A stretch of DNA of 64,000 nt, from IMG/VR virus record IMGVR_UViG_3300045988_159436. One strand, given 5' to 3'. Numbering within the stretch: the first letter of the stretch is position 1; every line of letters starts with the position of its first letter. The stretch is from a virus. Both the position numbers and the translations under genes were made by a program. Shown one piece after another: positions 11,584 to 57,850 of this stretch. The notes beneath the pieces are model-generated. The model was not told the DNA's origin and searched no databases. It was given only the letters and a program-made list of their open reading frames with translations.

Positions 11584-11657
11584 CTTTGTGTGGCGCAGTT
11601 TGGTAGCGCATTCGCTTTGGGAGCGAAGGGTCGCAGGTTCAAATCCTGCCACAAAGA
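11584..11657 (+). tRNA. tRNA-Pro(TGG)
   Basis: cloverleaf by eye. Confidence 0.75.
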
Positions 11658-11875: not shown

Positions 11876-11937
11876 GTTCTAGCTTGGGCATAAGCTCTGG
11901 GGCTACCGTAGATAGGGACATTTCCCTATCACTTAAT

Positions 11938-12010
11938 GTGAATATAGCTTAGTTGGTAAAGCACTTGACTTTTAATCAAGATAGCGGAGGTTCAATTCCT
12001 CCTATTCACA
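11938..12010 (+). tRNA. tRNA-Lys(TTT)
   Basis: cloverleaf by eye. Confidence 0.75.
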
Positions 12011-12022
12011 CCAATTAATAAT

Positions 12023-12058
12023 GCAGGGGTTGCATAGTTGGCGATTGCACCAGACTGT
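12023..12058 (+). tRNA. 5' half of a tRNA split by HNH-gene insertion (acceptor GCAGGGG, D arm)
   Basis: pairs perfectly with 3' half at 12664-12688; anticodon arm cannot be completed by eye. Confidence 0.4.
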
Positions 12059-12073
12059 AAAGGAGCATAAAAA

Positions 12074-12667
12074 ATGCTTTGCGAAAACTGTAATAAAGAG
12101 CATAATGGAAGTTATGGTTCTGGAAGATTTTGTTCTAAAGAATGTGCTAAGTCTTTTTCTACCAAAAATAAAAGAAAACTAATAAACGAAAAGGTTAGTA
12201 ACAGTTTAAAAGGACGCATTGTTTCGGATTTAACTAGGAGAAAAATATCAGATGCTGGAAAAGGGAGAAGACATACAGAAGAGACTAAGAAGAAAATACA
12301 AAAAAGCAAATTAGAATTTTATAAAGAAGAAGAAAACATTCTTAAAATATCTATAGCGCATCTTGTCCAAAAAGGCAAGAATATAAATTCTATCTTAGAT
12401 GTTAGTCCTAGAACAGTGACTAAAATTTTAAAAAGGTTAAAAATTGGTTGCTCGTTGTGTGGTTGGGATAAAGCCACTTGCGACATTCACCATATTAAAG
12501 GCAGAAAAATAGTTAATCCTAATGCTCATAGTAATTTAACTTACATTTGTCCAAACTGTCATAGATTAGTACATGCGGGTTTAGTGGATTCAAAAGAGTT
12601 AGTGACACTTGAACAACATATAGGAGATAGGTGGAAAGAATACTATTTTAGAAAAGAGACACCGTAG
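12074..12667 (+). CDS. HNH homing endonuclease with N-terminal Zn finger and NUMOD3-like repeats
   Basis: CDIHHIKGR...N...CPNCHRLVH. Confidence 0.75.
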   Translation: MLCENCNKEHNGSYGSGRFCSKECAKSFSTKNKRKLINEKVSNSLKGRIVSDLTRRKISDAGKGRRHTEETKKKIQKSKLEFYKEEENILKISIAHLVQKGKNINSILDVSPRTVTKILKRLKIGCSLCGWDKATCDIHHIKGRKIVNPNAHSNLTYICPNCHRLVHAGLVDSKELVTLEQHIGDRWKEYYFRKETP

Positions 12668-12688
12668 GTTCGATTCCTACTCCCTGCA
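12664..12688 (+). tRNA. 3' half of split tRNA (T arm + acceptor TCCCTGC)
   Basis: gtagg-ttcgatt-cctac then tccctgc-a-cca. Confidence 0.4.
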
Positions 12689-12694
12689 CCATAT

Positions 12695-12728
12695 TTCCCA
12701 TTAGCTCAATGGATAGAGCACAGGTCTT
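12695..12728 (+). tRNA. tRNA-Arg(TCT) exon 1 (ends after U34 of anticodon loop)
   Basis: TTCCCAT-TA-GCTC...GAGC-A-CAGGT-CTT|. Confidence 0.55.
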
Positions 12729-13339
12729 TAAAGATAGGAGCGTTCATGTGGAACATTAAGAAAATTGTAAGTAAAGGTGATTATTTATATGCTTTAGTTC
12801 CTGAACATCCAAAAGCAACTAAGAATGGTTACGTTCTTTTACATAGGATTGTTATGGAAAATCATCTTGGTCGGTTACTTAATGCGAATGAAGTTGTACA
12901 TCATAAAAATTTGAATAAGAAAGATAACAACATCAAAAATTTAGAAATTTTGTCTATAAGAGAGCATGCTAAAAAACATGGATTAAAACTAAAGAAACAC
13001 ATGGTTTTGTTAAAATGTCCTTGTTGCAAGAAAGTGTTCTCGCTAGCTCGAAATAAATCTTTTTTAGTAAAGAAGACAAAATATAATTGTAACTGTTGTA
13101 GTTGTTCTTGTAGAGGTAAATTAACAAAAATGATACAGCTTCAAGGAGTAACACTTGAACTGGAAGATGCTATATCGGAGAATCTCTTAACGGAATATTT
13201 GCTAAACAAAGCCGAAGACAACTCCGAGGAAACCTTCTTACAAGGGGTTCTGTAGAGACTATACGCATCTTACCTGAAATGGTAAAGAAATAGTCCAGAC
13301 TACAACACATATGTGGCTATAGAAATATAGAGTAGTAAG
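12729..13339 (+). mobile_element. tRNA intron (group I-like) carrying HNH endonuclease
   Basis: follows U, ends in G; 3' exon restores anticodon loop cttCTaa, stem, T arm and acceptor ATGGGAA. Confidence 0.5.
12746..13255 (+). CDS. HNH endonuclease (HNH_3) with C-terminal Cys cluster
   Basis: VVHHKNLNKKDNNIKNLEIL. Confidence 0.75.
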   Translation: MWNIKKIVSKGDYLYALVPEHPKATKNGYVLLHRIVMENHLGRLLNANEVVHHKNLNKKDNNIKNLEILSIREHAKKHGLKLKKHMVLLKCPCCKKVFSLARNKSFLVKKTKYNCNCCSCSCRGKLTKMIQLQGVTLELEDAISENLLTEYLLNKAEDNSEETFLQGVL

Positions 13340-13377
13340 CTAAACCTTGTGTGCAGGTTCGATTCCTGCATGGGAAA
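13340..13377 (+). tRNA. tRNA-Arg(TCT) exon 2
   Basis: ctaa-acctt-gtgt-gcagg-ttcgatt-cctgc-atgggaa-a-cca. Confidence 0.55.
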
Positions 13378-13750
13378 CCAAATAGATTATAATAGCTTGG
13401 GGTTAAAATAAAATAGTGAGTCTAGATAACCATTAGTGACTTAGGGCGCATTAAGTTGGGTCAGCAACAGAAAAATCTGACACATTGGTCTGCTAGGGAC
13501 TTTAAAAAACTCACGCCTTTTGTTCATAGAGACAGAAGTTAGCCATTGATAGTATATATTTAACTGTATAAGTATATGCCGAGGCTTTATCAGTTCGCAC
13601 TGAGCTAATTTACAGCTAGGTATAGAGCCGAAGAAGAAAGTGCCAACCAAGCCATTTTATATACTAGGACTAAAGGGTAGAACGGTCAGCTACCGCCACA
13701 GAGAAGCTCTGGTAGGAGATGCTGGGTTGACAGCCAGCTTAGTTCTTATT

Positions 13751-13823
13751 TGCCAGATAGTGTAATGGTAACACAGCAGACCTTGACTCTGTTAAGTGTA
13801 GGTTCGAGTCCTACTCTGGCATC
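13751..13823 (+). tRNA. tRNA-Gln(TTG) (C33 in loop)
   Basis: cloverleaf by eye. Confidence 0.6.
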
Positions 13824-13828
13824 CATAT

Positions 13829-13900
13829 TGAAGCATAATACAAGGGTTAGTATGCTGTGCTGATAACGCAGAAATGATGGTTCAACTCCATCTGCTTCAA
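13829..13900 (+). tRNA. tRNA-Ile(GAT)
   Basis: cloverleaf by eye. Confidence 0.7.
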
Positions 13901-13904
13901 CCAT

Positions 13905-13978
13905 GTCCTATTACCCCAATCGGCAGAGGGAACGGACTTAAAATCCGTACAGTCTCAGTTCGAATCTGAGATAGGACA
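13905..13978 (+). tRNA. tRNA-Leu(TAA) with short variable arm (atypical type I)
   Basis: anticodon loop ctTAAaa. Confidence 0.5.
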
Positions 13979-13985
13979 CCAAAAT

Positions 13986-14058
13986 GGCATATTAGTCTAA
14001 TGGCTAGGACACAACACTTTCAATGTTGGGATGGCGAGTTCAATTCTCCCATATGTCA
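13986..14058 (+). tRNA. tRNA-Glu(TTC)
   Basis: cloverleaf by eye. Confidence 0.7.
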
Positions 14059-14064
14059 CCATAC

Positions 14065-14134
14065 ATGCCTTTAGCTTAGTTGGTTAAAGCGGCTGGTTGA
14101 AGCCCAGCAGAGTCCGTTCGATTCGGAGAGGCAT
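14065..14134 (+). tRNA. tRNA-Phe(GAA)
   Basis: cloverleaf by eye. Confidence 0.65.
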
Positions 14135-14139
14135 ACCAT

Positions 14140-14212
14140 GCTAGTGTAGCTCAATAGGTAGAGCAACGGCTTTGTAAGCCGTGGGTTGCGGGTTCAATTC
14201 CTGCCACTAGCT
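14140..14212 (+). tRNA. tRNA-Thr(TGT)
   Basis: cloverleaf by eye. Confidence 0.75.
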
Positions 14213-14354
14213 CCATTTTAAAAATTGAATAGTTAGGGAAAGCCCTAGCTATTTTTGTTTATATGCAATAAACTTTATAAAAAACACTGTTACAACTGTA
14301 AAAAACAAAATAATTTATTTGCAAAGGAAGTGTTTGTTATAAGGAGTGTTCAAA

Positions 14355-15302
14355 GTGATTACTAAGGTGAAAAAGCGGGATGGAAGAATTGTAGATTATG
14401 ATTCTTCTAAAATTGTTAATGCGATTCTAAAAGCTTTTAAAAGTTTAGGAATGTTAGAAGGAAAAGAAGTAAGGTTAGCAAACAAGATAGAATCTAAAAT
14501 TAAAGAGACAGCAGAAAGTATTCCAGAAGTTGAATTTATTCAAGATATGATTGAAAAAGAGTTAATGGCATCAAATTTTAAAAATGTAGCGAAAGAGTTT
14601 ATTTTATATAGGGAAAAAAGAAATAGAGAGCGGGAAAGAGATTCTGCGTTAAGAAAAGAAATATTAAGTAAAATAGAATGTACAAATGTGATGAATCAAA
14701 ATGCAAATGTAGATGAAGAAAGTTTTGGTGGCAGAAAATTTGAAAGTGCCGCAGTAATACATAAAGATATTGCGTTAAATGATTTAATGTCAAGTGATGT
14801 AGCTAAAGCACATAAAGAGGCAAGAATTTATATTCACGATTTAGATAGTTATAGTGTTGGGATGAGCAACTGCTTGTTTTCGGATTTAGTACCGCTATTG
14901 ACAAATGGTTTTATTACAAGAAATGGTGATGTAAGAGGGGCAGGAAGCTTTAGCACTGCTTGCCAATTAGTAGCTGTAATATTTCAGGCTCAAAGCCAAT
15001 GTCAGTTTGGTGGAATAGCTTCTGCACATATAGATAGAGATTTAGCACCATTTGTAAAAAAGAGTTTTGTAAAACATTTCAAAAATGGTATGAAATATGT
15101 AGAGCAAAAAGAAATAGATAAAGAATTGGAATATTTTTTAGGCTTTTTAAAAAACAATGAAGAGAATATACATATAGATAATGATGTCTTTAAGAAATAT
15201 GAAAAGGCATATGAATACGCAAATGCTATGTTAGAGCTTGAAGGAAAACAGAGTACAGAAGCAATGTATCATAATTTAAATACCTTAGAGAGTCGCCCAG
15301 GT
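14355..15302 (+). CDS. nrdD: anaerobic ribonucleoside-triphosphate reductase NrdD exon 1 (ATP-cone + N-terminal catalytic region); 3' junction approximate (15293 or 15302)
   Basis: ATP cone VKKRDGRIVDYD..; class III RNR-like segments; frame ends at a stop inside the intron. Confidence 0.7.
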
Positions 15303-16451
15303 AGGAGAACTGCCTGTTAGAGATGGAAACACTTTAATGTAATCGGGCAAAATCGGTAAATTCTAAAAAATTGGAGAATATATGAAGAAATTAGATGTAG
15401 AAATAGAAAATGAAATTATTAAATATTATATTGAATATTTTTATAGCTGTCGTAAGATAAGTAAAGATTTAGGAATAAGTGGAGCTACTGTTTTAAATGT
15501 TTTAAAAAGAAATGGGATTCCTACGAGAACAAAGGGAGGAATTTATGAATTGCCTACTTCTTTATTGGTGCAAAAATATAGAGAAGGGGTTTCTATAATT
15601 CAGCTTTCTAAAGAATATCAAGTATGTGTTCAAACTATTGCAAATTATTTGGCAAAAGCGGAAATTAATTTAAATAACATATATTACAATAAGAAATTGG
15701 ACAGAAACTATTTTGATAAAATAGACACATACGATAAGGCTTATTATTTAGGCTTTTTGATTTCTGATGGTAGCGTAGGCACTTCTACAAATAAAATTGA
15801 TTTAACGTTAAAAAAATCAGATAGTTATATTTTAGACGTTTTAAGTTCTAAAATTAATAATACTAATCCTATATATTTTTCTAAAAGAGGAGAGGCTTCT
15901 TTAACTTTTAAGTCTAAAGAAATAAAAAATGCTTTAGCAAAATATGGAGTAATTCCTAATAAAACGTTTAAAACTTATTTACCTGAACTTGAAATGTCTT
16001 TAATGCCACATTTAATTCGAGGTTTAATAGATGGAGATGGTTGGGTATCATTTAAATCTCACGCTATTGGTTTTTGTGGCTCTGTTGAGCTAGTAGGACA
16101 AGTTAGAGATTTTTTAGTAAAAATTCTAGGCGTTTTTCCTGTAAAAATTATTGAACATTCAAGTATTTGTCAAGTTAATTGGGCATCAAAAAATGATATT
16201 ATAAAAATAGGAAATTATATTTATAAAGATAAACAAGATTGTTTTCTACATAGGAAATTCAATAATTTTATGAAAATACCGAGATAACTTAATATGTAAT
16301 AGTATTAAGTATTGTAGAGCGTAGCGATTGAACCTCTAAGAGAATATAATATCGCCAAGAGTGTCCGATACCCTAACAAGTAAAGTTGAGGGTAAAAATG
16401 TACGCCGAACTTATGGGAAACCATAAGAACTATGAGATAAAAAGCTTGTAG
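15303..16451 (+). mobile_element. group I-like intron 1 in nrdD with LAGLIDADG HEG
   Basis: starts after U, ends in G; shares gggcaaaatcggt and a ~75-nt 3' core with intron 3. Confidence 0.6.
15382..16287 (+). CDS. LAGLIDADG homing endonuclease (two-motif)
   Basis: YLGFLISDGSV and LIRGLIDGDGWV. Confidence 0.85.
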   Translation: MKKLDVEIENEIIKYYIEYFYSCRKISKDLGISGATVLNVLKRNGIPTRTKGGIYELPTSLLVQKYREGVSIIQLSKEYQVCVQTIANYLAKAEINLNNIYYNKKLDRNYFDKIDTYDKAYYLGFLISDGSVGTSTNKIDLTLKKSDSYILDVLSSKINNTNPIYFSKRGEASLTFKSKEIKNALAKYGVIPNKTFKTYLPELEMSLMPHLIRGLIDGDGWVSFKSHAIGFCGSVELVGQVRDFLVKILGVFPVKIIEHSSICQVNWASKNDIIKIGNYIYKDKQDCFLHRKFNNFMKIPR

Positions 16452-16766: not shown

Positions 16767-17012
16767 AAGTGGAACTTAGCCCATTTAAAACCCTTTGAAC
16801 GCCGTCAGGCGGTGTGACCAGTAGGTTGCTAACGGTTAGGACTCTTTGAGTTGAGACCGTGCTAAGGTTCATATATTGTGATGAACAAAGTGTATCGACT
16901 AGCCGTGATGAGTGTAGCGGCGTAGGGACGGAGATAGACACCGTATCCGAAGCGGAGGGCTGTTTTTAAACAGATAATATAGTCAGTACCACTAGCGATA
17001 GTGGAGAATACG
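16767..17012 (+). mobile_element. small ORF-less group I-like intron 2 in nrdD (246 nt, GC-richer, structured)
   Basis: splits conserved ..MG|CRTLIG..; follows U, ends G; stop codons in reading frame. Confidence 0.55.
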
Positions 17013-17897
17013 TGTAGAACCCTGATAGGTAAAGATAGACATGGAATGGGGTATAAGAAAGACGGTAGAGGTAATGCTTGCCCTGTAACTATTAATTTAC
17101 CTAGAATTGGAATAAAACATGGCATTTGCTTAGGCAAACCATTAGATTTAGAAGGATTTTGGAAAGAGCTTGATGAAGTATTAGATTTAACAGAAAAGAG
17201 CTTAATAGAGAGATTCTTTTATATGTGTAAGCAGAGTGTAAAAGCCGCTCCGTTTATGTATAACAATAATATTGTTGCTGATGCAAAATTGGCAAGAGAA
17301 AAAGGCATTTATGAAACATTAAAGCATTTTACATTAGGATTTGGATATATTGGTATTGCTGAAATGTGTCAAGCACTGTTTGGTGCAGACCATTATGAGT
17401 CTAAAGAGAGTTTGGATTTTGCTTTGAAAGTTGTTGAGCATATTTATCAAAGAACGGTTGAAGCAAGTGAAAAGCATAATTTGAATTTCTCTTGTTATGC
17501 TACTCCTGCTGAAACATTGGCATATAAATATGCTTTGGCTTTAAAGAAAGAGTTTGGAGTAATACCTAATGTTACAGATAGGGAATATATAACTAATTCA
17601 CATCATGTTCCAGTTTGGCAACAAGCATCTATTTTTGAAAAATTAGATATTGAAGCTAAATTCTGTAAATACCCCACGGCAGGCTGTATTACTTATATTG
17701 AGTTTGAAGCAGATGCAATGAAAAATGAACAAGCGGTAGAGGATATTATGGATTACGCAATGTCTATAGATGTTCCCTATTTAGCTTATAATTTTCCTAT
17801 TGATGTTTGCCATGATTGCGGATTACAGAGTGATATCCCAAGTGTTTGCCCGAATTGCGGAAGCAATAATATTTTACGTTTAAGAAGGGTTACAGGT
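17013..17897 (+). CDS. nrdD: NrdD exon 3 (..CRTLIGKDRHGMG..CPVTINLPRIG.. C-terminal Zn ribbon CHDCG..CPNCG, ..RVTG)
   Basis: class III RNR motifs; glycyl radical motif RVTG|Y split by intron 3. Confidence 0.7.
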
Positions 17898-18199
17898 TAT
17901 TGAATAGCCGTATTTACAAGAAATTGTAAATATAATTATTGGGCAAAATCGGTGAACCCTAAAATTTTTACTTGACAATACTTAAGAAATGTGATAAGTT
18001 TAAAAAAATTAAGGGAATACCGAGGTAAGTTATTAGATAGCGAAAGGCTGATAGCTACTGTAGAGCGTAGCAGGTGAATAAATATAATCCTGCCAAGAGT
18101 GTCCGATACCCTAACAAGTAAAGTTGAGGGTAAAAATGTACGCCGAACTTATGGGAAACCGTAAGAAGTTAGGATAAAAAGCCTAGCGATAACATAATT
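17898..18199 (+). mobile_element. ORF-less group I-like intron 3 in nrdD (302 nt), homologous to intron 1 core
   Basis: 16357-16428 nearly identical to 18094-18166; boundaries follow U / end G. Confidence 0.55.
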
Positions 18200-25834: not shown

Positions 25835-26726
25835 AAGTCGTCTTGAAAAATAACGTGAAAACATGGAAGCCTAAGTCAGAGTTGTTCACTGATAAGGTAA
25901 TCATGTGAGAAGGCAGGATACATTAATGAATAGCTTACAGCAAGAAATTTTAATAGGAAAATTGTTGGGAGATGGAAGCATCTCTAAAGTATCAGAAAAA
26001 ACAGCAAGATTTAATATAGGTCAGTCTATAAAACAAGAAGATTATGTCAATCACCTTTATGGCATATTTAAAGATATGTGTGGTACTCCACCGAGAAAAC
26101 AGAAAAGTGGAGAATATACTACAGTTTATTTTAACTCATTGTCTTCTTTTGAATTAATGGACATTTATAAGCTATTTGTAAATGACGGTATAAAAGGAGT
26201 TCCTCAAAATATTGAAGAATTACTGACAGTAAGAGGGTTAGCTTATTGGTTTATGGATGATGGGACAAGTTCCTATGTTTCCATAACAAAAAGATTAAAA
26301 ACCAGAAATGCTTTTGCAATGTTTTGTACTGATGCGTTTAACGATAAAGATATAGATTTATTGAGAAATGCTTTGTTCAAAAACTTCGGAATCAAAAGTA
26401 GTGTGGCTAGTCCAAAATCAAGAAAAGGAAAAAGAATTTATATTGGAACAGATGAGACCCAGAAACTCTTTGATTTAATTGAGCCTTTTATAATCGACAG
26501 TATGTCATATAAAATAAAAAGACCTTACATACTGTAAAATATCTGTGCCCTTGCAACGACTATGGACGTTACTTCCTTGAAAAGAGGAAGATGAGATAGT
26601 CTGGACTTATAGGAAACTATAAGAGGGGATTCCGTTAGGGAGTTGTACGCCCTACATTGAAGTGTTTCCCCCGCCAAGAAATTGGTCATAAAAGTAACAG
26701 ATAGCATCAATCAAGAACATTGCGGG
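25835..26726 (+). mobile_element. group I-like intron A in capsid gene carrying LAGLIDADG HEG
   Basis: 5' region cgtgaaaacatggaa..atcatgtgagaagg repeated in intron B; 3' core gagatagtctg..aagagggg..cccgccaagaaattggtca. Confidence 0.5.
25905..26537 (+). CDS. LAGLIDADG homing endonuclease
   Basis: LLGDGSISK and YWFMDDGTSS. Confidence 0.8.
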   Translation: MRRQDTLMNSLQQEILIGKLLGDGSISKVSEKTARFNIGQSIKQEDYVNHLYGIFKDMCGTPPRKQKSGEYTTVYFNSLSSFELMDIYKLFVNDGIKGVPQNIEELLTVRGLAYWFMDDGTSSYVSITKRLKTRNAFAMFCTDAFNDKDIDLLRNALFKNFGIKSSVASPKSRKGKRIYIGTDETQKLFDLIEPFIIDSMSYKIKRPYIL

Positions 26727-26892: not shown

Positions 26893-27477
26893 GTGAAACA
26901 AGTAATTAAAGATTATCCAAATTATTTGATAACTACATCTGGAAAAGTTCTTTCCGCTTATAAAGGGGGAGAAGAGCTAGTTCCTAGAGTTGGAACTAGA
27001 GGATACGCTTATGTAAATCTTTATAACGAAAAAGGCAGAAAAACAAAAAAGATACATAGACTTGTAGCTGAAACGTTTATACCTAACCCAGAAAATAAGC
27101 CTATGGTAAATCATAAAGACGGAAACAAGTTAAATAATCATGTAGAGAATTTAGAATGGGTAACACCCTCTGAAAATGCTCAACATGCTGTTGATAATGG
27201 GTTGCTGTCTTTTGATACAGAAGCACATAAAAGAGCTTCTCGTGAAAATGGCAAAATGTTTGGTGGAAGGTGTGGCAGAAAGATTTTCGCCATGAATGTT
27301 ATAAATGGATATATAAAAACTTTTAAGAGCGTGTCAGAAGCTGTGAAATATTTAAATGTGACAGAAAACTCATTAAGAACAGCTCTTAAAAAAAGTAAGT
27401 GTATAAATGGTTATCATGTTTGGTATACAGATACCCTTGCAACGACTATGGACGAAGAGCCCAAAATAGGGTTATGA
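26893..27477 (+). CDS. HNH homing endonuclease (NUMOD4 + HNH_3 + AP2-like)
   Basis: PNYLITTSGKV.., HHKDGNKLNNHVENLEWVTPSEN. Confidence 0.8.
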   Translation: MKQVIKDYPNYLITTSGKVLSAYKGGEELVPRVGTRGYAYVNLYNEKGRKTKKIHRLVAETFIPNPENKPMVNHKDGNKLNNHVENLEWVTPSENAQHAVDNGLLSFDTEAHKRASRENGKMFGGRCGRKIFAMNVINGYIKTFKSVSEAVKYLNVTENSLRTALKKSKCINGYHVWYTDTLATTMDEEPKIGL

Positions 27478-45533: not shown

Positions 45534-47348
45534 TTGGAACATATAACTAAACAAGAAGATGTAACAGTAACTAGAATAGTAAGCTCTTTAAATACTTTAG
45601 ATGATGAAAATATGGTGGTAGTGTCCACTACAGAGCCAGAGAAGAAAAAAGATGGATTAATATGGGTTAATCCAAATCAAGAAGAAGCGGAAAAATTGGT
45701 TTATGTAGGACATACAGTTGGTGACATTTATCCCATTAGTTATACAGAGTTAGATTCAGGTCAGTTAATATTAAATGGTCAGTTAATAAGCAGAGAAATA
45801 TATGGTGTGTTATGGGATTGGTTGCAAAAACACCCTAGTTTAATAAAAACAGAAGTAGAGTGGAATGCATATTTAGCATCAACAAATAATGTATGTTGCC
45901 CATATTTTAGTATGGGAACTACTGAAACTAATTTTAGATTGCCTAAATATAGTGGAGTATTTATTAGAGCTGATTCTGATATAACTAAAATTAATCAATT
46001 TAGTGAAGATACACAAAGAAATATTCTTGGACAATTTACAACTTTTCGTACAAGTTGGGATGATGGTACTGGAGAATTACTTTTTGGAGTGAGTGGAGCT
46101 TTTGCAAAAGTAGAAACTGGTAATAATATGGACAGTATTCATCAAGATGGCTCAGACAGACAACAGCAAACTATAAATTTCGACGCTTCACGTTCAGTAG
46201 GCGCAGAGCATACTGGCGAAGAAGTAAAACCTAAATCAATAAATCAAATATGGGTTATTCAAGCTGTAGGAACTATTACTAATCAAACAAGTATTGATGT
46301 AAGTGCTATTCAAGAAGAAGTGCAACAATTAATGGATTTTGGGAATTATCAAGTAGCTTGCATTAAGGATAAATCCAATTATTTTTCAAGAGATAGTTTA
46401 TTTACTTCAAACAAAACGTCTATTGTTATTCCTAAGAATATGCGGATAAATATAAATGGAGAGGCTTATATAAGCACACGTAATGTCACTCTTAATACTT
46501 CAACATTAGGTGAAAATCTAGCGGGTAAAGATGTTTATATTTATGCCTTAGCAGGTTCTGGAACAGAGCCAGATTTTGTATTATCTTTAAATAGTACAGT
46601 TCCTACAGGATATACAGCAGAAAATAGCCGTAAAATAGGTGGTTTTCATTGTTTATGTAAAGATGTTGGGATTATAGAAGGGCATGCTTTATCTGGATAT
46701 GTTGCAGGGGATATCTTACCAGCAACAAGATGGGATTTAGAACACCGCCCAAAAGGAAATCCAGAAGGATTTGCTTATGAAGAATTAACGGATTGTTGGA
46801 TTGCGATTTATCTGCCAAGTTGGGACGGAACTAAATTAGTCAGTGTTTATAATGGAGTTATTGCTGATGGAAGCTCTGCTAAAAAATGGCATGGAGAAGC
46901 TTTTTATGAGCAATTTGTAAAACAAGGAATGCGTTTAGTTTGGCGGCACGAATTTCAAATGGGAGCAAAAGGTTCTAATGAACAAACAAATATTCAAGGT
47001 TCATCTGACCCTAATACTACAGGTGGGCATGTAGATACGGCTGGAAGAAGAATGATTAGTAATATAGGATTAGAAGATTGTTGTGGTGTATTATGGCAAT
47101 TTTCAATGGATTTAGGCTTTGCTGGCGGGTCTGGTTGGACAAATTCTACTTATAACTCTAATGTAGACGATAGAAGTTATGGACGAACATATGGAACGCT
47201 TTATCGCTTGCTGTTGGGTTCTAGCTGGAATGTTGGCTCGTATTGCGGTTCTCGTTCGGCTAATTGCAATGATTCTTCGGCTTATGTGTCTGTCCACAAC
47301 TCTTCTCGTAGTGCGTCTGAGCCGAGAATTGAAAATTTGAGAAACTAA
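45534..47348 (+). CDS. DGR target protein: receptor-binding protein with C-terminal C-type-lectin-like variable region
   Basis: VR occupies last ~37 codons. Confidence 0.8.
   Translation: MEHITKQEDVTVTRIVSSLNTLDDENMVVVSTTEPEKKKDGLIWVNPNQEEAEKLVYVGHTVGDIYPISYTELDSGQLILNGQLISREIYGVLWDWLQKHPSLIKTEVEWNAYLASTNNVCCPYFSMGTTETNFRLPKYSGVFIRADSDITKINQFSEDTQRNILGQFTTFRTSWDDGTGELLFGVSGAFAKVETGNNMDSIHQDGSDRQQQTINFDASRSVGAEHTGEEVKPKSINQIWVIQAVGTITNQTSIDVSAIQEEVQQLMDFGNYQVACIKDKSNYFSRDSLFTSNKTSIVIPKNMRININGEAYISTRNVTLNTSTLGENLAGKDVYIYALAGSGTEPDFVLSLNSTVPTGYTAENSRKIGGFHCLCKDVGIIEGHALSGYVAGDILPATRWDLEHRPKGNPEGFAYEELTDCWIAIYLPSWDGTKLVSVYNGVIADGSSAKKWHGEAFYEQFVKQGMRLVWRHEFQMGAKGSNEQTNIQGSSDPNTTGGHVDTAGRRMISNIGLEDCCGVLWQFSMDLGFAGGSGWTNSTYNSNVDDRSYGRTYGTLYRLLLGSSWNVGSYCGSRSANCNDSSAYVSVHNSSRSASEPRIENLRN
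47208..47320 (+). repeat. DGR variable repeat (VR)
   Basis: 113 nt; 15 mismatches to TR, all at TR adenines. Confidence 0.85.
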
Positions 47349-47495
47349 GAAACCGAGAAAAAGTTTGGATAGTTGGACAGAGAGGTCTAGAAACCGAGAG
47401 ACCGAGACTAAAATTTTTAGTTGTGAGAAAATAAAGAAGATTATATAATAATATTATATAAGGGCATATATGATACTTAGATTGGCAAGATTTTT

Positions 47496-47608
47496 TTGCT
47501 GTTGAGTTCTAACTGGAATAATGGCACGAATTGCAGTTCTCGTTCAGCTAATTGCAATGATTCATCAGCTAATGTGAATGTCAACAACTCTTCTCGTAGT
47601 ACGTCTGA
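47496..47608 (+). repeat. DGR template repeat (TR)
   Basis: non-coding copy, Asn-codon (AAY) rich in VR frame. Confidence 0.85.
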
Positions 47609-47759
47609 TACGTGGGTGATTTTAAAGCAGGTGCGGCTTACCCTCGGCTGATTATATATGCCTCACTGAAAAGTGAAATACAAAACAGGGAGAAATAGGG
47701 GCTAGTAAAGTAATTGAACGTCCTTATTTCTAAATTTTATTAAATTAAAAGGATAATTA

Positions 47760-48776
47760 ATGAAAAGAAAAGGAAATTTATGGACTAAAATAATAGACAA
47801 AAGCAATTTATATTTGGCTTTTGAGAAAGCTAAAAGACATAAAAGTTGGCAAAGAAAGGTTAAAATTATAGAAGCAAATTTAGATTATTATATTGAAAAG
47901 TTACAAAATGATTTGATAACAGGTCAATATAAAACTGCTGAATATAAGTTAAAAACAATTTATGAGCCAAAGAAAAGAGATATTTATATTTTGCCATTTT
48001 ATCCAGATAGGATAGTTCATCACGCTATTATGAATGTTTTAGAGCCTATATGGGATAATAGATTTATTTATAATAGTTATGCTTGTCGAAAAAATAAAGG
48101 TCAACATAAAGGCAGTATAAAATGTATGGAATACACTAGAAAGTTTAAATATTGTTTGAAATGTGATATAAGTAAATTTTATCCTTCTATTAATCACAGG
48201 CTTCTAAAGAAAGTGATACGTAAAAAAATAAAATGTAAAAAGACTTTAAATTTATTAGATGAGATAATTGATAGTGTTGATACGCCTGTAAATGTTCCTA
48301 TAGGAAATTATTTAAGTCAGTGGTTTGGAAACTTATATTTAAATGAGTTAGATGTTTTTCTAAAGCAAGAGAATTGTGTAAAAAATTATTTAAGATATTG
48401 CGATGATTTTTTATTATTTTCTGATGATAAAACATATTTAAATAAAATGGCTAAAATAATAAATGAATATGTAGTTAATATTTTAGAATTAAAACTTAGC
48501 AAATGTGTTTTGTTTCCAACAGCACAAGGAGTTGATTTTTTAGGATATAGACATTTCCATGCTGGTTATGTTTTGGTAAGAAAATCAACAGCTAAAAGAA
48601 TGAAGCGTAGGATTAAAAGATTAAAATATGAATTATTAAAGAATAAAATAAGTCAAGATAAGGCTTTATCTGTTGTAGCAAGTTTATCTGGGGGGTTAAG
48701 ATGGGCTAATAGTTACAATTTAAAAATGTCTTTAGAGCTAGAATTATTAAAAAAGGAATTAGGAGGAAACTCTTAG
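47760..48776 (+). CDS. DGR reverse transcriptase
   Basis: PIGNYLSQWFGNLYLNELD and YCDDFLLF motifs. Confidence 0.85.
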   Translation: MKRKGNLWTKIIDKSNLYLAFEKAKRHKSWQRKVKIIEANLDYYIEKLQNDLITGQYKTAEYKLKTIYEPKKRDIYILPFYPDRIVHHAIMNVLEPIWDNRFIYNSYACRKNKGQHKGSIKCMEYTRKFKYCLKCDISKFYPSINHRLLKKVIRKKIKCKKTLNLLDEIIDSVDTPVNVPIGNYLSQWFGNLYLNELDVFLKQENCVKNYLRYCDDFLLFSDDKTYLNKMAKIINEYVVNILELKLSKCVLFPTAQGVDFLGYRHFHAGYVLVRKSTAKRMKRRIKRLKYELLKNKISQDKALSVVASLSGGLRWANSYNLKMSLELELLKKELGGNS

Positions 48777-49067: not shown

Positions 49068-49355
49068 ATGATAGGCTATCCAAAACATTTAAATACAAAA
49101 GCAGATTATGAATATGTAAAAAGTAATTTTCCAAAGGAAATGTGGGAAAATGATTTTCGTGTTTTATTGGAGACCGCACATGATTGGTTTTTTATTAGAG
49201 AATTAGAAAAAGGAGAGGTTCCTGTATTATTAGAAAATCAAAAGATAGAAAAAACGGAAGAAAAAGATTGTTTATTTGAATATAAATATGATGAAAATTG
49301 CACATTAAATAGATTAGGATTTACAATAGAAGAAATTGAAGAATATTTAAAATAA
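49068..49355 (+). CDS. hypothetical protein
   Basis: ORF track. Confidence 0.4.
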   Translation: MIGYPKHLNTKADYEYVKSNFPKEMWENDFRVLLETAHDWFFIRELEKGEVPVLLENQKIEKTEEKDCLFEYKYDENCTLNRLGFTIEEIEEYLK

Positions 49356-49358
49356 TAG

Positions 49359-49387
49359 TTGACAATTTTTACATAATATGGTATAAT
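49359..49387 (+). promoter_or_regulatory. sigma70-type promoter
   Basis: TTGACA-17-TGgTATAAT. Confidence 0.65.
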
Positions 49388-49451
49388 ATTTATAGTGTTC
49401 AGATAACAGCTATGACTGTTAAGTTATTACTTAAAATTTAATAAGTAATGC

Positions 49452-49480
49452 TTGACAGTCTTTTTATTTTATGTTATAAT
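49452..49480 (+). promoter_or_regulatory. sigma70-type promoter
   Basis: TTGACA-17-TGtTATAAT. Confidence 0.65.
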
Positions 49481-49489
49481 AGTATTGAG

Positions 49490-52289: not shown

Positions 52290-52562
52290 ATGGCATATAA
52301 AGTTTGGATAACAGCACGTGGGAAGAAATATTGGGTAACAAAATTTGTAAACATTGCAGGAGTTCTTGAAATTCATTTTACACAAGATATAACAGATAAT
52401 GTAGCTATATATCCCAGTAAGGATATAGCAAGACGAGCATTAATAGCTACTTTAAATCATATACCAGAAGCTGTAGAAGGAGGAATGTTGGAAATTCCTG
52501 CAAAAATAATTAAAAAAAAAAGGTTGACAAAAATCCGAAAGTATGCTATAATAGACATATAA
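52290..52562 (+). CDS. small protein, YKVW..GKKYW family (paralog 2)
   Basis: paralogy. Confidence 0.4.
   Translation: MAYKVWITARGKKYWVTKFVNIAGVLEIHFTQDITDNVAIYPSKDIARRALIATLNHIPEAVEGGMLEIPAKIIKKKRLTKIRKYAIIDI
52524..52552 (+). promoter_or_regulatory. sigma70-type promoter (within 3' end of 52290 ORF) for tail fibre operon
   Basis: TTGACA-17-TGcTATAAT. Confidence 0.6.
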
Positions 52563-52691: not shown

Positions 52692-54569
52692 ATGGCTTAT
52701 GAAGCTTTCACTGGTGAAGAGTATATAGATACAGATTTAGTAGCGAAACTAAATCAAAATTATGATGCTTGCGGAAAACTGGCAAGTAAAAACACATGGT
52801 CAGCAGATAATGACTTTACAGCAGGTTTGACAGTAAACAAAACTCCTACAGTAAATACTGATGTATCGAATAAAAAATATGTAGATGATAGTATAGCTAA
52901 CGGAGATGTAAATTCGGCTAAATATTTAAACATAACGAATTTTATCCCTTCAAATAGCGATTTTAATGATTACAAAACTCCTGGAAAATATCAAGTACAA
53001 AGCTATACAGTAGCAAGCACAATGGCAAATATCCCCACTAGCTATAATGATGCAACGCCAAGGAGCGGTGTATTAAGTGTATTGATTGGATTTAATGCCC
53101 TTAGAACAAGTTTAGTCCAGATTTATCGAACTTATGGGAGTAGTTATGTAGTTTCAAGAACGTATCAACGCTGTTTTTACCATGAAAATAGTCGTTGGAC
53201 TGCATGGCGAGAAATTGCTTGTACTGATGAAGTAGGCTTATTAAATCAAGCAAATACCTATACAGCATTAAATATTTTCAGGGCAAATATTGGCGTATCT
53301 AACGGAACTGCGGCAGGTAGCAGTGGTACTGTAAGTTTTGGTGTTTCTCCGACAGGTGAAACAGTACAAGCAAGAATTGGAACAGATAATTTAGGTGGAT
53401 TATTTTATTACGCAAGCACAAATCAACCTCATGTATTTAGAGTTGGAACGAATAATAATGTGTTTGTCATACGTGACGATAATACAAAAGTAACTTTTTC
53501 TAGCAATAATAAGTCCTTTGCAACGGTCACACATGATGGTGTTGCAAAATGGTTAGGTAATGCTAATACAGCAACAAAGTTACAAACCGCACGCACAATA
53601 AATGGAGTATCTTTTGATGGCACAGCAAACATTACAATAGCTGACTCTACAAAGCTCCCTATTGCTGGTGGAACAATGACAGGTAATTTAACACTTAAAG
53701 GCAATCCAACAGCAGATTTGATGGCGGCTACAAAAAAATATGTAGATGATAGTGTTGCAAGTGCAACAGCTGGTTTACTGAGTTCTAACAATATTTGGAC
53801 TGGCAGTAATACATATAATAGGGATATTCATATAACAAATGGTTCGTCCGCTGGTTCGAGTGGTACGTTATATTTAGGTGTTAAACCTGCGAATGAAACA
53901 GTACAAGCAAGAATTGGAACAGATAATTTAGGTGGATTATTTTATTACGCAAGCACAAATCAACCTCATGTATTTAGAGTTGGAACGAATAATAATGTGT
54001 TTGTCATACGTGACGATAATACAAAAGTAACTTTTTCTAGCAATAATAAGTCCTTTGCAACGGTCACACATGATGGTGTTGCAAAATGGTTAGGTAATTC
54101 TGCCACAGCAACAAAACTAGCAACTGCAAGGACTATCACAGCAAATCTTGCAAGTAGCACTGCTGGTAGCTTTGACGGCTCGGCAAATATAACAGTCGGA
54201 GTTACTGGTACTTTACCAATCGCAAATGGTGGAACAGGTTTAACTTCTGCTCCTTCTATGTTAGTAAACCTTGCTAGTACAACAGCCACATCTCCGTTAC
54301 AGGCATCTCCACGTCCAGGTGTGACAGGGACTTTACCGATAGCAAACGGCGGCACTGGACAGACAACAGCGGCAGGAGTAAGAAATGCTTTAGGGCTGGG
54401 AAACACGACAGGAGCAGTTCCTATAGCAAATGGAGGAACAGGTGCAACAACAGCCGCCGCCGCAAGGACTGCATTAGGATGTGCACCTGCATATACCTAT
54501 AGTACAACTGATTTAACCGCTGGAAGCTCTAAATTAACCACAGGCACACTTTATATTGTGTATGAATAA
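52692..54569 (+). CDS. tail fibre protein with internal ~212-bp direct repeat and IANGGTGxT collagen-like repeats
   Basis: N-terminal anchor paralogous to 45093; repeats 53358-53570 and 53896-54108. Confidence 0.6.
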   Translation: MAYEAFTGEEYIDTDLVAKLNQNYDACGKLASKNTWSADNDFTAGLTVNKTPTVNTDVSNKKYVDDSIANGDVNSAKYLNITNFIPSNSDFNDYKTPGKYQVQSYTVASTMANIPTSYNDATPRSGVLSVLIGFNALRTSLVQIYRTYGSSYVVSRTYQRCFYHENSRWTAWREIACTDEVGLLNQANTYTALNIFRANIGVSNGTAAGSSGTVSFGVSPTGETVQARIGTDNLGGLFYYASTNQPHVFRVGTNNNVFVIRDDNTKVTFSSNNKSFATVTHDGVAKWLGNANTATKLQTARTINGVSFDGTANITIADSTKLPIAGGTMTGNLTLKGNPTADLMAATKKYVDDSVASATAGLLSSNNIWTGSNTYNRDIHITNGSSAGSSGTLYLGVKPANETVQARIGTDNLGGLFYYASTNQPHVFRVGTNNNVFVIRDDNTKVTFSSNNKSFATVTHDGVAKWLGNSATATKLATARTITANLASSTAGSFDGSANITVGVTGTLPIANGGTGLTSAPSMLVNLASTTATSPLQASPRPGVTGTLPIANGGTGQTTAAGVRNALGLGNTTGAVPIANGGTGATTAAAARTALGCAPAYTYSTTDLTAGSSKLTTGTLYIVYE

Positions 54570-54581: not shown

Positions 54582-55193
54582 ATGGCAAAAAGCATTTATA
54601 TAGGTGTAGATGGTAAAGCAAGAAAAGCAAAGAATATATACATTGGAGTAGACGGCAAGGCAAGAAAAGTCAAAAAAATGTATATAGGAGTAAATGGCGT
54701 AGCAAGATTATGTTACACGTCCGAAGTAACAGTAACGGTCACAATCGTACAATCAGCAAATCAAACAATAACAGTAATTTGCAATGGCAATTCATATACA
54801 TCAACATTCACAGCAGAAGCAGGGTCAACTTATACGGCAAGTATATCAGCAAGTACAGGTTATAATGCAGGCACATTAAGCAGTACAAGTGGAACATTGA
54901 CAGATAATATCACTATTAGTGCAACAGCCGCTACCTTGAAAACCTATACTTATACGATTAATCAGCCTACAGGTGGAACGATTACTGTTACAGTTGATGG
55001 AGTTGCATATACATCAACCTTTACTGTTCAGCATGGCAAAACTGCAAGCAATTTGTGTACGCCGAATAGTGGATACACCTTTAAGACATTTACATTGTCA
55101 GGAAGCTATCAAACTGCAAGCGCAAATACATTAGCAATAAATGGCGATGCTGAAATTGGAGCTGTATTAGAAAAGGAGGACGAAGATGTTTAA
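54582..55193 (+). CDS. tail fibre-associated protein (IYIGVDGKARK x3 N-terminal repeats)
   Basis: ORF track. Confidence 0.45.
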   Translation: MAKSIYIGVDGKARKAKNIYIGVDGKARKVKKMYIGVNGVARLCYTSEVTVTVTIVQSANQTITVICNGNSYTSTFTAEAGSTYTASISASTGYNAGTLSSTSGTLTDNITISATAATLKTYTYTINQPTGGTITVTVDGVAYTSTFTVQHGKTASNLCTPNSGYTFKTFTLSGSYQTASANTLAINGDAEIGAVLEKEDEDV

Positions 55194-55461
55194 TTGGTTG
55201 ATAAAATTATTAGGCGGGAAAACAAAATCGGAATATGAAGATATGCAAAAAGAACTAAATGAAAAATGTGCTAAATTATCAAACACATTAGACAGTTATG
55301 CGAATCTTGATTTTGTTGCAAGTGGTGAATATTCTTTTAGTGTAAAAGCAAATTCACCTTATAGTATTTTAGTTAAAAAAGGTCAAAATCTTATAATCAC
55401 TGGTTATAACAAAGATGGAGAGCTTTTAGAAAAAATTGATGTAAATAAGGAGGACGAATAA
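55186..55461 (+). CDS. hypothetical small protein (MFNWLIK..)
   Basis: ORF track. Confidence 0.4.
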   Translation: MFNWLIKLLGGKTKSEYEDMQKELNEKCAKLSNTLDSYANLDFVASGEYSFSVKANSPYSILVKKGQNLIITGYNKDGELLEKIDVNKEDE

Positions 55462-55997
55462 AATGTTTAATAAATTAATTAGGGGGGGGGCAGGCAGATA
55501 AAGAATTGTCTGTCAGCCGTCTTCCAAAATTACAATTACACGCACTAACTGATAATCCTATGAATATTACAGTCACAGGGAATATTACGGTTAGTGCGAC
55601 ACTAGAAAATAGTGGACAAATAGGTTTAACGGTCGGTCAATATACTTATGGCGGAAATCATTGGCAGTACGGTTATAGTAGCGCAGACTATGCATCAGAT
55701 CAAGTATATGGCAGTCTAAGTCCTGATACGTTCTATGGAATTAAAATAACTTCATTAATCGCAGGATTAATAGTTGATCCTAGTAGTCAGCAGCCTTTGC
55801 TACATATACTATTGATATCTTTTGCTAATAGTTTAAGTCAGAGTTCGATAAAAGTGACAATTAATAATAAGACTTATACGCTTAGTGCCCCTAATGGAAG
55901 CGCCTATTATTATGTAAATTTACCTGATAATGATACATCATTAGTGATGTGGTTACAATCACAGGTAGGTAAGACCATAACTGTAAACCTAGAGTAG
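55462..55997 (+). pseudogene. receptor-binding tip cassette paralog 1; ATG 55462 (strong AAGGAGG RBS) is out of frame with body because of G9 tract 55482-55490 (putative phase-variable)
   Basis: G8 would fuse MFNKLIRGG.. to ..SVSRLPKLQLHALTDNPMNITVTGN..; as written it terminates after 12 codons. Confidence 0.5.
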
Positions 55998-56046
55998 CAT
56001 TATTTTCAATATGTAATATTCCTCTGTGAGAAATCGGAGGAAAAAG

Positions 56047-56466
56047 ATGGCTTTGACAGACAATCCTATGAGTTTAGTGGTTACAGGCAATGTAACAGTT
56101 GGGGCAACATTAGAAGCAAGTGTACCGACTACTGAAACAAGATTGTTGAGTACTATGGATGTGAATACAACGGTTACTATTACAGTGCCTGCGGGTGTAA
56201 AAGTATTAAAAGTATCAGGTGCTGTAGACCATGAACACGAAGGTGAAGTAGCTTTAGATGTATATTCAGTAAATAGCAAAAAATATTGGTTATCTGTATA
56301 TAATTACGGATATGCTAGTGATATTTGGTATGTAGGAGTTACACCCAATAAAAGTTATACATTAAAGTTATCAACTGATAGCGAAACTGGCACTGAATCT
56401 GGAAGTGTAACTATTAGTTATTCACAATCAATTAACAATCAAACGCCTAAAGTAACCGATTACTAA
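56047..56466 (+). CDS. receptor-binding tip cassette paralog 2 (MALTDNPMSLVVTGNV...TPKVTDY)
   Basis: conserved N and C termini, variable middle. Confidence 0.55.
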   Translation: MALTDNPMSLVVTGNVTVGATLEASVPTTETRLLSTMDVNTTVTITVPAGVKVLKVSGAVDHEHEGEVALDVYSVNSKKYWLSVYNYGYASDIWYVGVTPNKSYTLKLSTDSETGTESGSVTISYSQSINNQTPKVTDY

Positions 56467-56487
56467 ACTCAAAATCTGCCGTATATT

Positions 56488-56901
56488 ATGGCTTTAACTG
56501 ATAATCCAATGTCAATTATCGTGACAGGCAATGTCACCATAGGAGCTAGCTTAGAGGCTAGTATTCCTAGTGGGGAAGTTACTTTAGCACATGGCAGTAC
56601 CTTTACAGTTCCCGCAGGAATAACAGTATTAAGAGCTTCATTTAATCAATCTGGATATTTAAGTTTGATTACGTATGTAGGTGTAACACCCAATAAATCC
56701 TATAAATTGTATTCTAATTGGACTGAATATAATTATGGAGAAGGTGAAGAATACTTGTTGTATAATGCTAACAATAATAAATCTTGGATTGATTATACTA
56801 TAGGCAATTTAGATGTTGATACTGGTTACACTGAGCTGAATTTTAAACTCGAATGGTCGCCTACTATCAATTCACACGCAGTAGAAGTTACAGACTATTA
56901 A
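56488..56901 (+). CDS. receptor-binding tip cassette paralog 3: constant N-terminus + variable C-terminal cassette A
   Basis: MALTDNPMSIIVTGNVTIGASLEASIP...SPTINSHAVEVTDY. Confidence 0.55.
   Translation: MALTDNPMSIIVTGNVTIGASLEASIPSGEVTLAHGSTFTVPAGITVLRASFNQSGYLSLITYVGVTPNKSYKLYSNWTEYNYGEGEEYLLYNANNNKSWIDYTIGNLDVDTGYTELNFKLEWSPTINSHAVEVTDY
56535..56569. repeat. 35-bp inverted repeat, left copy (caccataggagctagcttagaggctagtattccta), internal dyad TAGGAG..TATTCCTA
   Basis: perfect inverted copy at 57203-57237. Confidence 0.85.
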
Positions 56902-57237
56902 TAATCAGTAATATTAGGAGATTTCGCATTAATAGTTGGAGACCAAGATATCAAAATTCTAGCTCTATCATCCCTAGCACTTATCCAATATTTACTAGAG
57001 CTAGAATAATAGCAATAATAAAAATCATTGCTACCAACCACGACTGTTAACGTATATGTTTTTCCACCAGTTACTCCTACATAATTAGGAGATTTTTCCC
57101 CCACATCCTGAACTTCAACAACTTTTATATTAGTGGGTATAGTCACACTCCATTTATTTGTAGAGCCCGGCGATGAATATGTAGGAGATTGTACACTTCC
57201 TGTAGGAATACTAGCCTCTAAGCTAGCTCCTATGGTG
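56898..57237 (-). other. promoterless inverted C-terminal cassette B (..TGSVQSP...SPTINAKSPNITDY) convergent with cassette A
   Basis: homology to paralogs begins exactly at the inverted repeat; upstream minus-strand sequence is non-homologous. Confidence 0.5.
57203..57237. repeat. 35-bp inverted repeat, right copy
   Basis: reverse complement identical to 56535-56569. Confidence 0.85.
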
Positions 57238-57262
57238 AGGGGATTTAAGAAAGGAATTGTAG

Positions 57263-57850
57263 ATGGTAAAAATACTAATAATGGTACTATTTTTCTTGTT
57301 CCCCACATTAGCGGATGCTCATGTTGTAATGGGTGGTGATAGGGGAGAAACAATGAAGAATATAAAAATAGTAGAAAATTATTTTAAAAATAATTTTAAT
57401 TTAACTTTACATAGAGATGTTGCTGTTATTAATGTTGGTTCAGTAAAAGAATATGCGGATTTGTTAAAATACTTTAAAATAAATAATGCAGAAGAAATAG
57501 CTCAAAAAAGTGGAGCGGTAACATCTCGAAATTCTGTAATAGTTATAAATACTGCTGGAACAGATAAGAGTGATAGATTGTTTCTTTTAGCGCATGAAAT
57601 GACACATCAATATCAGTTCCAGCAGAAGGGAAAAGCGGCTACAGAAGATATGGCAATGCTTGAAGGATTTGCTGATTTAATAGCCAATGACATAAGTGGA
57701 GCTTACATATCTATTGAAAATTATGGAATAAAGCGGGAAGATTTAAAGAGTTATTCAGATTTCAACGAAGCACAAAAACAGTATGGAAATAAGGTATATG
57801 AACAGGCAAGATATTATGCAAGAAAAGAGAAGTTTTTAGATTATTACTAA
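57263..57850 (+). CDS. secreted HExxH zinc metallopeptidase-like protein
   Basis: signal peptide; LLAHEMTHQYQF. Confidence 0.45.
   Translation: MVKILIMVLFFLFPTLADAHVVMGGDRGETMKNIKIVENYFKNNFNLTLHRDVAVINVGSVKEYADLLKYFKINNAEEIAQKSGAVTSRNSVIVINTAGTDKSDRLFLLAHEMTHQYQFQQKGKAATEDMAMLEGFADLIANDISGAYISIENYGIKREDLKSYSDFNEAQKQYGNKVYEQARYYARKEKFLDYY

Follow-up and report, generated by a model that had tools for sequence, protein, structure and literature searches.

Can a programmed inversion run on 35 bp of homology by general recombination alone, or must a phage borrow an enzyme from its host to perform it? The question is raised by IMG/VR virus record IMGVR_UViG_3300045988_159436, a 64,000-nt stretch of DNA that we call the window throughout, in which the third of three small paralogous genes behind a tail fibre gene is crossed by one arm of a perfect inverted repeat. 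The original prediction, made from the letters alone, was of an invertible segment that switches the C-terminus of the encoded protein between two cassettes, A and B. Both orientations of this segment do occur between the same flanks in independent assemblies, and we consider a real, recurrent inversion to be highly probable. Taken as a whole, the explanation that we regard as best is a recurrent host-recognition inversion switch operated by the phage's own general recombination, to which we assign a probability of roughly 0.5.

Anatomy of the invertible segment

A repeat search of the window places the two arms at positions 56534-56569 (left inverted repeat, IRL, + strand) and 57203-57238 (right inverted repeat, IRR, − strand). 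The arms are 36 nt long, 100% complementary and separated by 633 nt (56570-57202), and the chance expectation for a perfect 36-nt inverted pair in 64 kb is ∼4e-13. The repeat had been predicted as 35 bp, and 35 nt is in fact the unit conserved across all relatives; the 36th base pairs only in one of the two right-flank contexts described below (RF1). Even a search that allowed 7 mismatches gave no third copy in the window, and at the same tolerance the relatives also carry two copies per locus. Paralogs 1 and 2 had been described as diverged at the DNA level, which they are (along the 70 homologous nt they share 64-70% identity with paralog 3), and conservation within the family therefore does not explain the perfect inverted match.

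The + strand open reading frame (ORF) at 56488-56901 encodes 137 aa and is built as had been proposed: MALTDNPMSIIVTGNVTIGASLEASIP falls on the repeat or outside it, and the segment contains cassette A. Its constant 5′ part (56488-56533, + strand), outside the segment and in a left flank that is conserved in all relatives, comprises codons 1-15 (MALTDNPMSIIVTGN) and the start of V16, and IRL encodes residues 16-27, (V)TIGASLEASIP, which form the linker just before the folded domain. Cassette A (56570-56901, + strand, 110 codons and a stop) occupies the expressed position in this window and specifies the beta-sandwich domain of the 137-aa protein. Cassette B (56898-57202, − strand, 101 codons and a stop) occupies the silent position and would supply the C-terminus after inversion. 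The two abut tail to tail, with stop codons that overlap at 56898-56901. The − strand ORF that contains cassette B (56898-57353) resembles the family only from TIGASLEASIP onward, to its C-terminal end ..SPTINAKSPNITDY, and upstream of the repeat it reads through sequence unrelated to the family, which agrees with the view of B as a cassette with no start of its own. This nonhomologous leader (57239-57353, − strand) is in frame with the silent cassette and has neither a family N-terminus nor recognisable start signals; gene callers draw ORFs beginning MWGTRK from it. Scans for a promoter serving the silent cassette, or for a terminator between the cassettes, gave matches at chance level.

When 56570-57202 is reverse complemented in silico, the paralog-3 N-terminus and cassette B form an unbroken ORF of 128 aa (N+B), the in-frame fusion that had been foreseen. 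A repeat common to an expressed gene and to an inverted, 5′-truncated homologue, with in-frame exchange of the 3′ part, is the generic signature of a gene-altering programmed inversion.

Both orientations in natural relatives

Relatives of the locus were fetched by repeat sequence and by protein from IMG/VR, from ENA, JGI and Logan contigs and from a metagenome scan, giving 33 classifiable complete loci; because some IMG/VR and ENA contigs may share samples, the counts are approximate. Among these loci the segment is found in either orientation between the same conserved flanks. The 16 segments with cassettes A and B (633 bp) divide into 8 with A in the expressed position (A-on) and 8 with B there (B-on); with the frame continuous as well, the locus shows neither a single orientation nor a frame mismatch. 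Many strains carry a third cassette, B′, in place of B, in a 684-bp segment, and of these 17 segments 16 are A-on and one (L131) is B′-on.

The right flank itself exists in two unrelated versions, RF1, which has the HExxH-motif gene found in the window, and RF2, which has a consensus promoter followed by other genes. A/B segments occur in both orientations in RF1 and in RF2. RF1 and RF2 genomes cease to be similar precisely where the 35-nt repeat ends on its outer side, i.e., at IRR. The identical 35-mer is present in 58 of the 68 repeat arms from 34 loci, and in 24 of the 34 the two arms match each other exactly, while the flanks diverge by 1-9%.

The alternative products are also present as called genes. 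A search of 5.8 billion proteins with the in-silico product returned full-length 128-aa N+B genes (P0121-P0127) at 92-99% identity, of which P0121 differs from the in-silico product by 1 aa, and the 145-aa fusion of the N-terminus to B′ is likewise in the databases (P0195, P0197, P0199 and P0208). Reciprocal ORFs are found too, with A, B and B′ each joined to the RF1 leader (MWGTRK...) or to RF2 leaders; these database "proteins" of 136-169 aa are gene-caller artefacts, silent cassettes read through noncoding leaders. Gene calls at this locus, and strain comparisons of gut viromes that include it, thus depend on the flip state. Short contigs were also considered as a sign of mixed orientation within one sample and were set aside, as the repeats do not coincide with the ends of the contigs that carry P0158, P0121 and P0119.

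Recurrence and selection

Orientation is polyphyletic on both the segment tree and the flank tree. On the segment tree the window (A-on) lies 0.3% from L038 (A-on) and 0.8% from L076 and L077 (B-on), with another B-on clade 2-3.5% away, and on the left-flank tree 0.8% separates L029 (B-on) from L038. At least three changes of orientation are required by parsimony on the segment tree. A single nt in 633 separates the closest pair of opposite orientation, L032 (B-on) and L121 (A-on), and on their RF2 side both have the same rare change from A to T at position 3 of the repeat, which remains with the flank whichever cassette adjoins it. Natural arm polymorphisms were examined as a map of the exchange point and did not serve as one: the position-3 variant is alone in occurring in both orientations and stays with its flank, and those at positions 12, 21, 25 and 28 occur in one orientation.

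The cassettes are intact almost without exception (A in 33/33 loci, B in 16/16 and B′ in 17/18, the one exception being an aberrant 1-kb contig). The ratio of nonsynonymous to synonymous substitution rates (dN/dS) is 0.34 for cassette A and 0.10 for B′, though B′ is silent in 16 of 17 loci; for B it is 0.88, but there are too few alleles to judge. Silent cassettes are thus kept intact under purifying selection, and the intact and conserved state of B′ indicates that it is not permanently silent. In more distant relatives the locus is a simple tandem array of complete paralogs that lacks the repeat, which makes the invertible form the derived one.

The encoded protein and its family

In AlphaFold models the constant peptide (residues 1-27) is disordered. 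The N+A model has a predicted local distance difference test (pLDDT) score of 89, with residues 28-137 above 95 and folded as a beta-sandwich, and the N+B model (pLDDT 87) has the same architecture. The 27-residue peptide probably docks the protein onto the tail, and a role of the switch in host range or adsorption seems to us fairly probable. The family is unannotated and comprises ∼196 clusters at 50% identity. It has no match in 185,579 reference genomes, a search of GenBank phages with the protein was also empty, and a BFVD structure search found uncharacterised gut-phage homologues only. PHROG scans of the long family members gave low-complexity noise only. The docking-peptide motif can also be a tandem repeat unit, as P0274 (1558 aa) has 14 separate matches to the docking-peptide part of the family profile (positions 4-41).

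The other two members of the array in the window lie upstream of the switchable gene. Paralog 2 (56047-56466, + strand, 139 aa) is complete and not invertible. Paralog 1 (55463-55997, + strand) has its real start at ATG 55463, behind the ribosome-binding site (RBS) AAGGAGG (55447-55453), and a tract of nine G residues (55482-55490) puts its body out of frame. Relatives that share these flanks exactly have a tract of G8 (1), G9 (8), G10 (3) or G11 (1); the G8 and G11 versions are in frame, and in-frame proteins are present in databases. We read the tract as a phase-variable contingency tract or, alternatively, as a slippage site. Similar tracts of 7-11 G residues in receptor-binding genes of Campylobacter phages are mentioned in work cited in PMC12633550.

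Proposed mechanism of strand exchange

The fixed 5′ part of the gene specifies an unstructured peptide of 27 residues that probably docks the protein on the tail, and the last 12 codons of this constant part double as the 35/36-bp sequence whose inverted copy lies 633 bp downstream. Between the repeats, the two promoterless and startless cassettes, placed tail to tail, encode different beta-sandwich domains. Recombination between the repeats flips the segment and puts the docking peptide in frame with A or with B (B′ in sister strains), leaving the other cassette silent. We propose that strand exchange would be carried out by the general homology-dependent or replication-linked recombination of the phage acting on the 35-bp identity, selection would hold the two arms identical, and the likely outcome would be a changed binding specificity of the virion.

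That no invertase acts here is a tentative proposal, to which we give slightly less than an even chance. No invertase had been noted in the window and none was found there; nor was any serine or tyrosine recombinase found in the whole tiled genome of ∼97 kb, for which essentially all ORFs above ∼100 aa were scanned against Pfam or PHROG and the precomputed annotations of the contigs extending beyond the window were consulted. These scans gave no Phage_integrase-type match anywhere. A phmmer search with six recombinases also found none, the Gin, Hin and gamma-delta resolvase queries giving nothing better than an E value of 0.05. The genome does have RecA, a resolvase and Cas4 or PD-(D/E)XK nucleases, and the lack of an invertase beside these enzymes favours the phage's own general recombination. 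A homology of 35 bp is within the range usable by phage recombination systems in recombineering practice. Because orientation is randomised only over 0.2-1% divergence, a flip rate of ∼1e-5 per replication would suffice.

Homology-driven exchange has left other footprints at the locus, in the replacement of the right flank, in the loss of paralogs 1 and 2 by recombination at shared N-terminal sequence and in a chimera in L033. In the last case the constant N-terminus is joined to an unrelated C-terminus of 409 aa exactly 23 nt into the repeat. We considered this junction as a site-specific crossover and rejected it: distant relatives have the same 407-aa gene as a complete paralog on its own, and the two sequences meet at shared Leu-Glu (LE) codons, so ordinary homologous exchange explains the chimera. 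In two further contigs, L110 (5040-5240) and L111 (2165-2365), the whole segment has been deleted at a 5-nt TAGGA microhomology inside the repeats, with one hybrid repeat left. In L130 (3950-4300) a deletion begins within paralog 2 and stops at the right repeat's inner edge. These natural deletions indicate that the third gene is dispensable and that the repeats are rearrangement hot spots.

The 407-409-aa family member (L033 3386-4615; L025 8713-9936) has the same N-terminal peptide of 23-27 residues followed by a large, unrelated and repetitive-looking C-terminal region, and is stand-alone in distant relatives; in L033, where it is fused at the repeat, cassette A has an N-terminus of its own. 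P0034, P0052, P0062, P0128, P0193 and P0194, from some of the genomes, are direct fusions between the poly-G leader of paralog 1 and a paralog-3-type body with A, B or B′. They show that exchange at the shared N-terminal sequence has removed paralogs 1 and 2, so that the array contracts and expands.

Alternative explanations

Several observations weigh against a host-recognition switch run by general recombination, beginning with the orientation data, which come from assembled contigs and a comparison between samples. Position 1 of contigs L113, L116 and L126 coincides with the inner edge of the left-flank repeat, and the graph branch at these ends is ambiguous, as it may come from mixed orientations in the sample or from small-k assembly. 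A de Bruijn graph with k at or below 35 could collapse the repeat, and the segment could then be misoriented in the assembly; yet the flipped contigs were built by MEGAHIT at k99-k141 and by SPAdes, at up to 319x coverage and with k well above the repeat length, each state comes from many independent studies, and the flipped states have sequence variants of their own, so that mis-assembly is not a credible cause. Orientations compared between samples would also suit an inactive relic, i.e., one inverted partial duplicate that underwent a few ancient inversions, was spread by lineage sorting and recombination between strains and has a repeat that is now without function. The derived state of the invertible form, the heavy mosaicism of the strains and the 16:1 excess of A-on among A/B′ loci speak for such a relic, which we nevertheless hold to be improbable. 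It does not account readily for opposite orientations at 1 nt in 633 with the same rare flank-arm variant, for three or more state changes with both orientations in both flank contexts, for silent cassettes kept whole with a dN/dS of 0.10 in B′ or for arms identical in 24 of 34 loci beside flanks 1-9% different, and a simple crossover inside the segment between genomes of opposite state cannot transfer orientation. As for function, Foldseek found no significant match in the PDB for the fold (E > 0.1), and we infer the virion location and receptor binding, like the name "tip" protein used in the original prediction, from position and fold.

The rival that deserves most weight keeps the same switch and changes the enzyme: a serine or tyrosine invertase would act in trans on the 35-bp repeat, either a "master" invertase of the host or a phage protein too divergent to be recognised. 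We favour general recombination over such an enzyme, which we regard as a serious possibility of lesser probability. The phage has many small ORFs with no annotation, among which an unrecognised recombinase may lie, and we know of no classical phage tail-fibre inversion system that lacks a dedicated invertase. The same 35 nt, with exact boundaries, is conserved in two unrelated right-flank contexts, as would be expected of a protein recognition site; its length is close to that of the Mu G inverted repeat (34 bp), and 35 bp approaches the minimum for RecA-type exchange. The repeat can also form a gapped hairpin of −13.2 kcal/mol, compared with −6.2 ± 2.9 kcal/mol for synonymous recodings of the same peptide, which places it in their 2.4% tail, and paralogs 1 and 2 encode similar peptides with no hairpin. 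The gapped dyad reads TAGGA-G-CTAGC / TTAGAG / GCTAG-TAT-TCCTA, with halves TAGGAGCTAGC and GCTAGTATTCCTA around TTAGAG. Global trans-acting invertases (the Mpi family) are known in gut bacteria (PMC9881135), and inversion on a 15-bp pneumococcal repeat strictly requires CreX (PMC6620402). Set against these points are the absence of a recombinase gene across the tiled genome and the fact that a virulent phage would depend on an enzyme that varies among hosts. The repeat is also unlike the known sites: its best ungapped agreement with the hix/gix consensus is 11/26, no better than that of the shuffled repeat, and its match to the sfx core is no better than chance. The original prediction had likened an internal dyad to recombinase crossover sites, which does not hold up as proof of such a site, since the ungapped dyad is equalled by 46% of synonymous recodings and the hairpin is only marginal. 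A search of 185,579 reference genomes for the 24-nt core of the repeat found it in none, and no host locus with this site is known, which is weak evidence given that only exact matches were sought.

Relation to known systems

To our knowledge, the well-studied tail-fibre inversion switches are all in temperate enterobacterial phages with an invertase of their own. The Mu G segment with Gin, like the P1 C/Cin, e14 P/Pin and p15B Min systems, shares with the present locus a short inverted repeat within a tail-fibre-type gene, a constant N-terminus outside and alternative C-termini inside, on opposite strands; expression is limited to whichever cassette adjoins the constant part, and the switch is expected to alter host range (PMC9881135). 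Those systems, however, have an adjacent invertase, whereas here there is none adjacent or in the genome, and they use 26-bp sites of the gix/hix type, which the present repeat does not resemble. Their segment is ∼3 kb, compared with 0.63 kb and no co-inverted chaperone gene here, and they switch a long fibre rather than a protein of 128-145 aa from an unannotated family. They also belong to temperate enterobacterial phages, and the present phage is of virulent type and Firmicute-associated. The R64 shufflon (Rci) likewise chooses among alternative C-termini of an adhesin-like protein by inversion, but it has several segments, many 19-bp sfx sites and an adjacent rci, where the present locus has two repeat copies, no sfx likeness and no rci. 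The switch is thus not a member of the Gin/Hin family or of the shufflons; it is Mu G-segment-like without an invertase of its own.

As a class, gene-altering programmed inversions (Milman et al., NAR 2023, PMC9881135) show the same kind of repeat shared by a full gene and an opposed 5′-truncated homologue, with the same asymmetry of size, and tail-fibre genes are among their enriched targets. Those loci are in bacterial chromosomes or prophages, usually with a recombinase, whereas the present one is in a free phage of virulent type from metagenomes and has none. Two further systems bear on exchange with no dedicated enzyme. In spnIII (hsdS) of Streptococcus pneumoniae, where inversion likewise swaps domains in a Firmicute, flipping at the 85- and 333-bp repeats is independent of CreX, of RecA and of any known site-specific recombinase (PMC6620402); the repeats there are longer and the locus is cellular and encodes a restriction specificity subunit, in contrast to the candidate virion protein of a phage. 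Cyanophages of the A-1(L)/N-1 group are lytic phages with an inversion in which both isomers occur and no dedicated recombinase has been identified, and the authors also consider general recombination (bioRxiv 10.64898/2026.02.14.705889). There, however, a region of ∼30 kb is flanked by repeats of 400-700 nt and no gene is re-spliced, whereas here 35-nt repeats re-splice a coding sequence. The diversity-generating retroelement (DGR) of BPP-1 (Mtd) shares the purpose of diversifying a receptor-binding protein and differs in working by mutagenic reverse transcription on a different gene. In gut metagenomes, published searches for "viral invertons" have yielded a handful of candidates, which differ in nature from the present switch.

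More speculatively, the small proteins may be new plug-in receptor-binding modules with a 27-residue docking peptide, in a lytic phage that has no invertase, uses its own RecA and resolvase or a host enzyme, and has three diversity generators. We offer this as a possibility that we would not back at even odds.

The host-recognition module

The module combines three variation devices: the inversion switch, a DGR and the variable poly-G tract of paralog 1. The DGR is complete and of the Mtd type (45534-48776), 8 kb upstream in the same tail module. It has a target gene at 45534-47348 (Pfam mtd_2nd, 7e-20), a reverse transcriptase at 47760-48776, a variable repeat at 47208-47320 and a template repeat (TR) at 47496-47608, and all mismatches between the repeats are at TR adenines. 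Together, inversion, DGR and poly-G tract show a heavy investment in varying the host-recognition surface.

Upstream of the paralog array is the tail fibre gene (52692-54569, + strand; PHROG tail-fibre families, best 1.5e-21). Its product has an internal duplication, with the block VQARIGTDNLGGLFYYASTNQPHVFRVGTNNNVFVIRDDNTKVTFSSNNKSFATVTHDGVAKWLGN present twice, and the gene is rearranged in relatives. Between the fibre gene and the paralogs, 54582-55193 encodes a 203-aa protein with three N-terminal copies of a ∼14-residue repeat, IYIGVDGKARKxK, and a subthreshold match to an InlB B-repeat-like domain. The tail region also has three near-consensus TTGACA-N17-TATAAT promoter blocks (49349-49388, 49442-49481 and 52514-52553) and small paralogous genes starting at 52063 and 52285.

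The RF1 gene that follows the segment (57354-57850, + strand) has an HEMTH motif and is not part of the switch. It had been described as a secreted HExxH peptidase, a description that we consider doubtful: the Pfam metallopeptidase matches are below curated cutoffs, and the signal-like N-terminus comes from an unused upstream extension of the ORF that overlaps the silent leader. Callers on related contigs give 173 aa, and an RBS-like AGGGGAG precedes ATG 57354. The RF2 loci L076 and L077 have unrelated genes in place of the HEMTH gene, and the switch is still present. An M15 endolysin gene comes after the paralog array.

The phage genome and its likely host

Five overlapping pieces (the window, L038, L065, L048 and L039) close a circular map of ∼96,970 bp. 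The window itself encodes 15 tRNAs, a split nrdD, ligase, dUTPase, terminase and portal. A DNA search of GenBank phages with the window gave no match, and the sole lead from these phages is the terminase, which shares 49% identity with its counterpart in Bacillus phage BCD7 (93.8 kb), the nearest isolate. A low-GC Firmicute host would also agree with the strong Shine-Dalgarno sites and the TTGACA-N17-TATAAT promoters. Identical proteins are found on human-gut metagenome contigs, and with no integrase the phage looks virulent. It is an uncultivated, virulent-type human-gut phage of ∼97 kb that is very common.

The recombination genes lie outside the window (L065 3931-5339 and 5520-8695; L048 555-8397) and comprise RecA split in two ORFs, a Holliday-junction resolvase, a Cas4-like exonuclease and a PD-(D/E)XK nuclease. 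The same region has a QueD/QueE/QueC cluster with a tRNA-guanine-transglycosylase-like gene, the content of which suggests 7-deazaguanine modification of the DNA.

Mobile genes are frequent, with at least six homing-endonuclease-like genes in the phage overall. The 15 tRNA genes form two clusters (11055-14215) with HNH endonuclease genes between them (12074-12667 and 12746-13255), and the head-gene region has a LAGLIDADG gene (25905-26537) and an HNH gene (26893-27477). An ORF of helix-turn-helix/LAGLIDADG type (15382-16287) interrupts nrdD, the gene for anaerobic ribonucleotide reductase, leaving two ORFs at 14346-15320 and 17001-17903.

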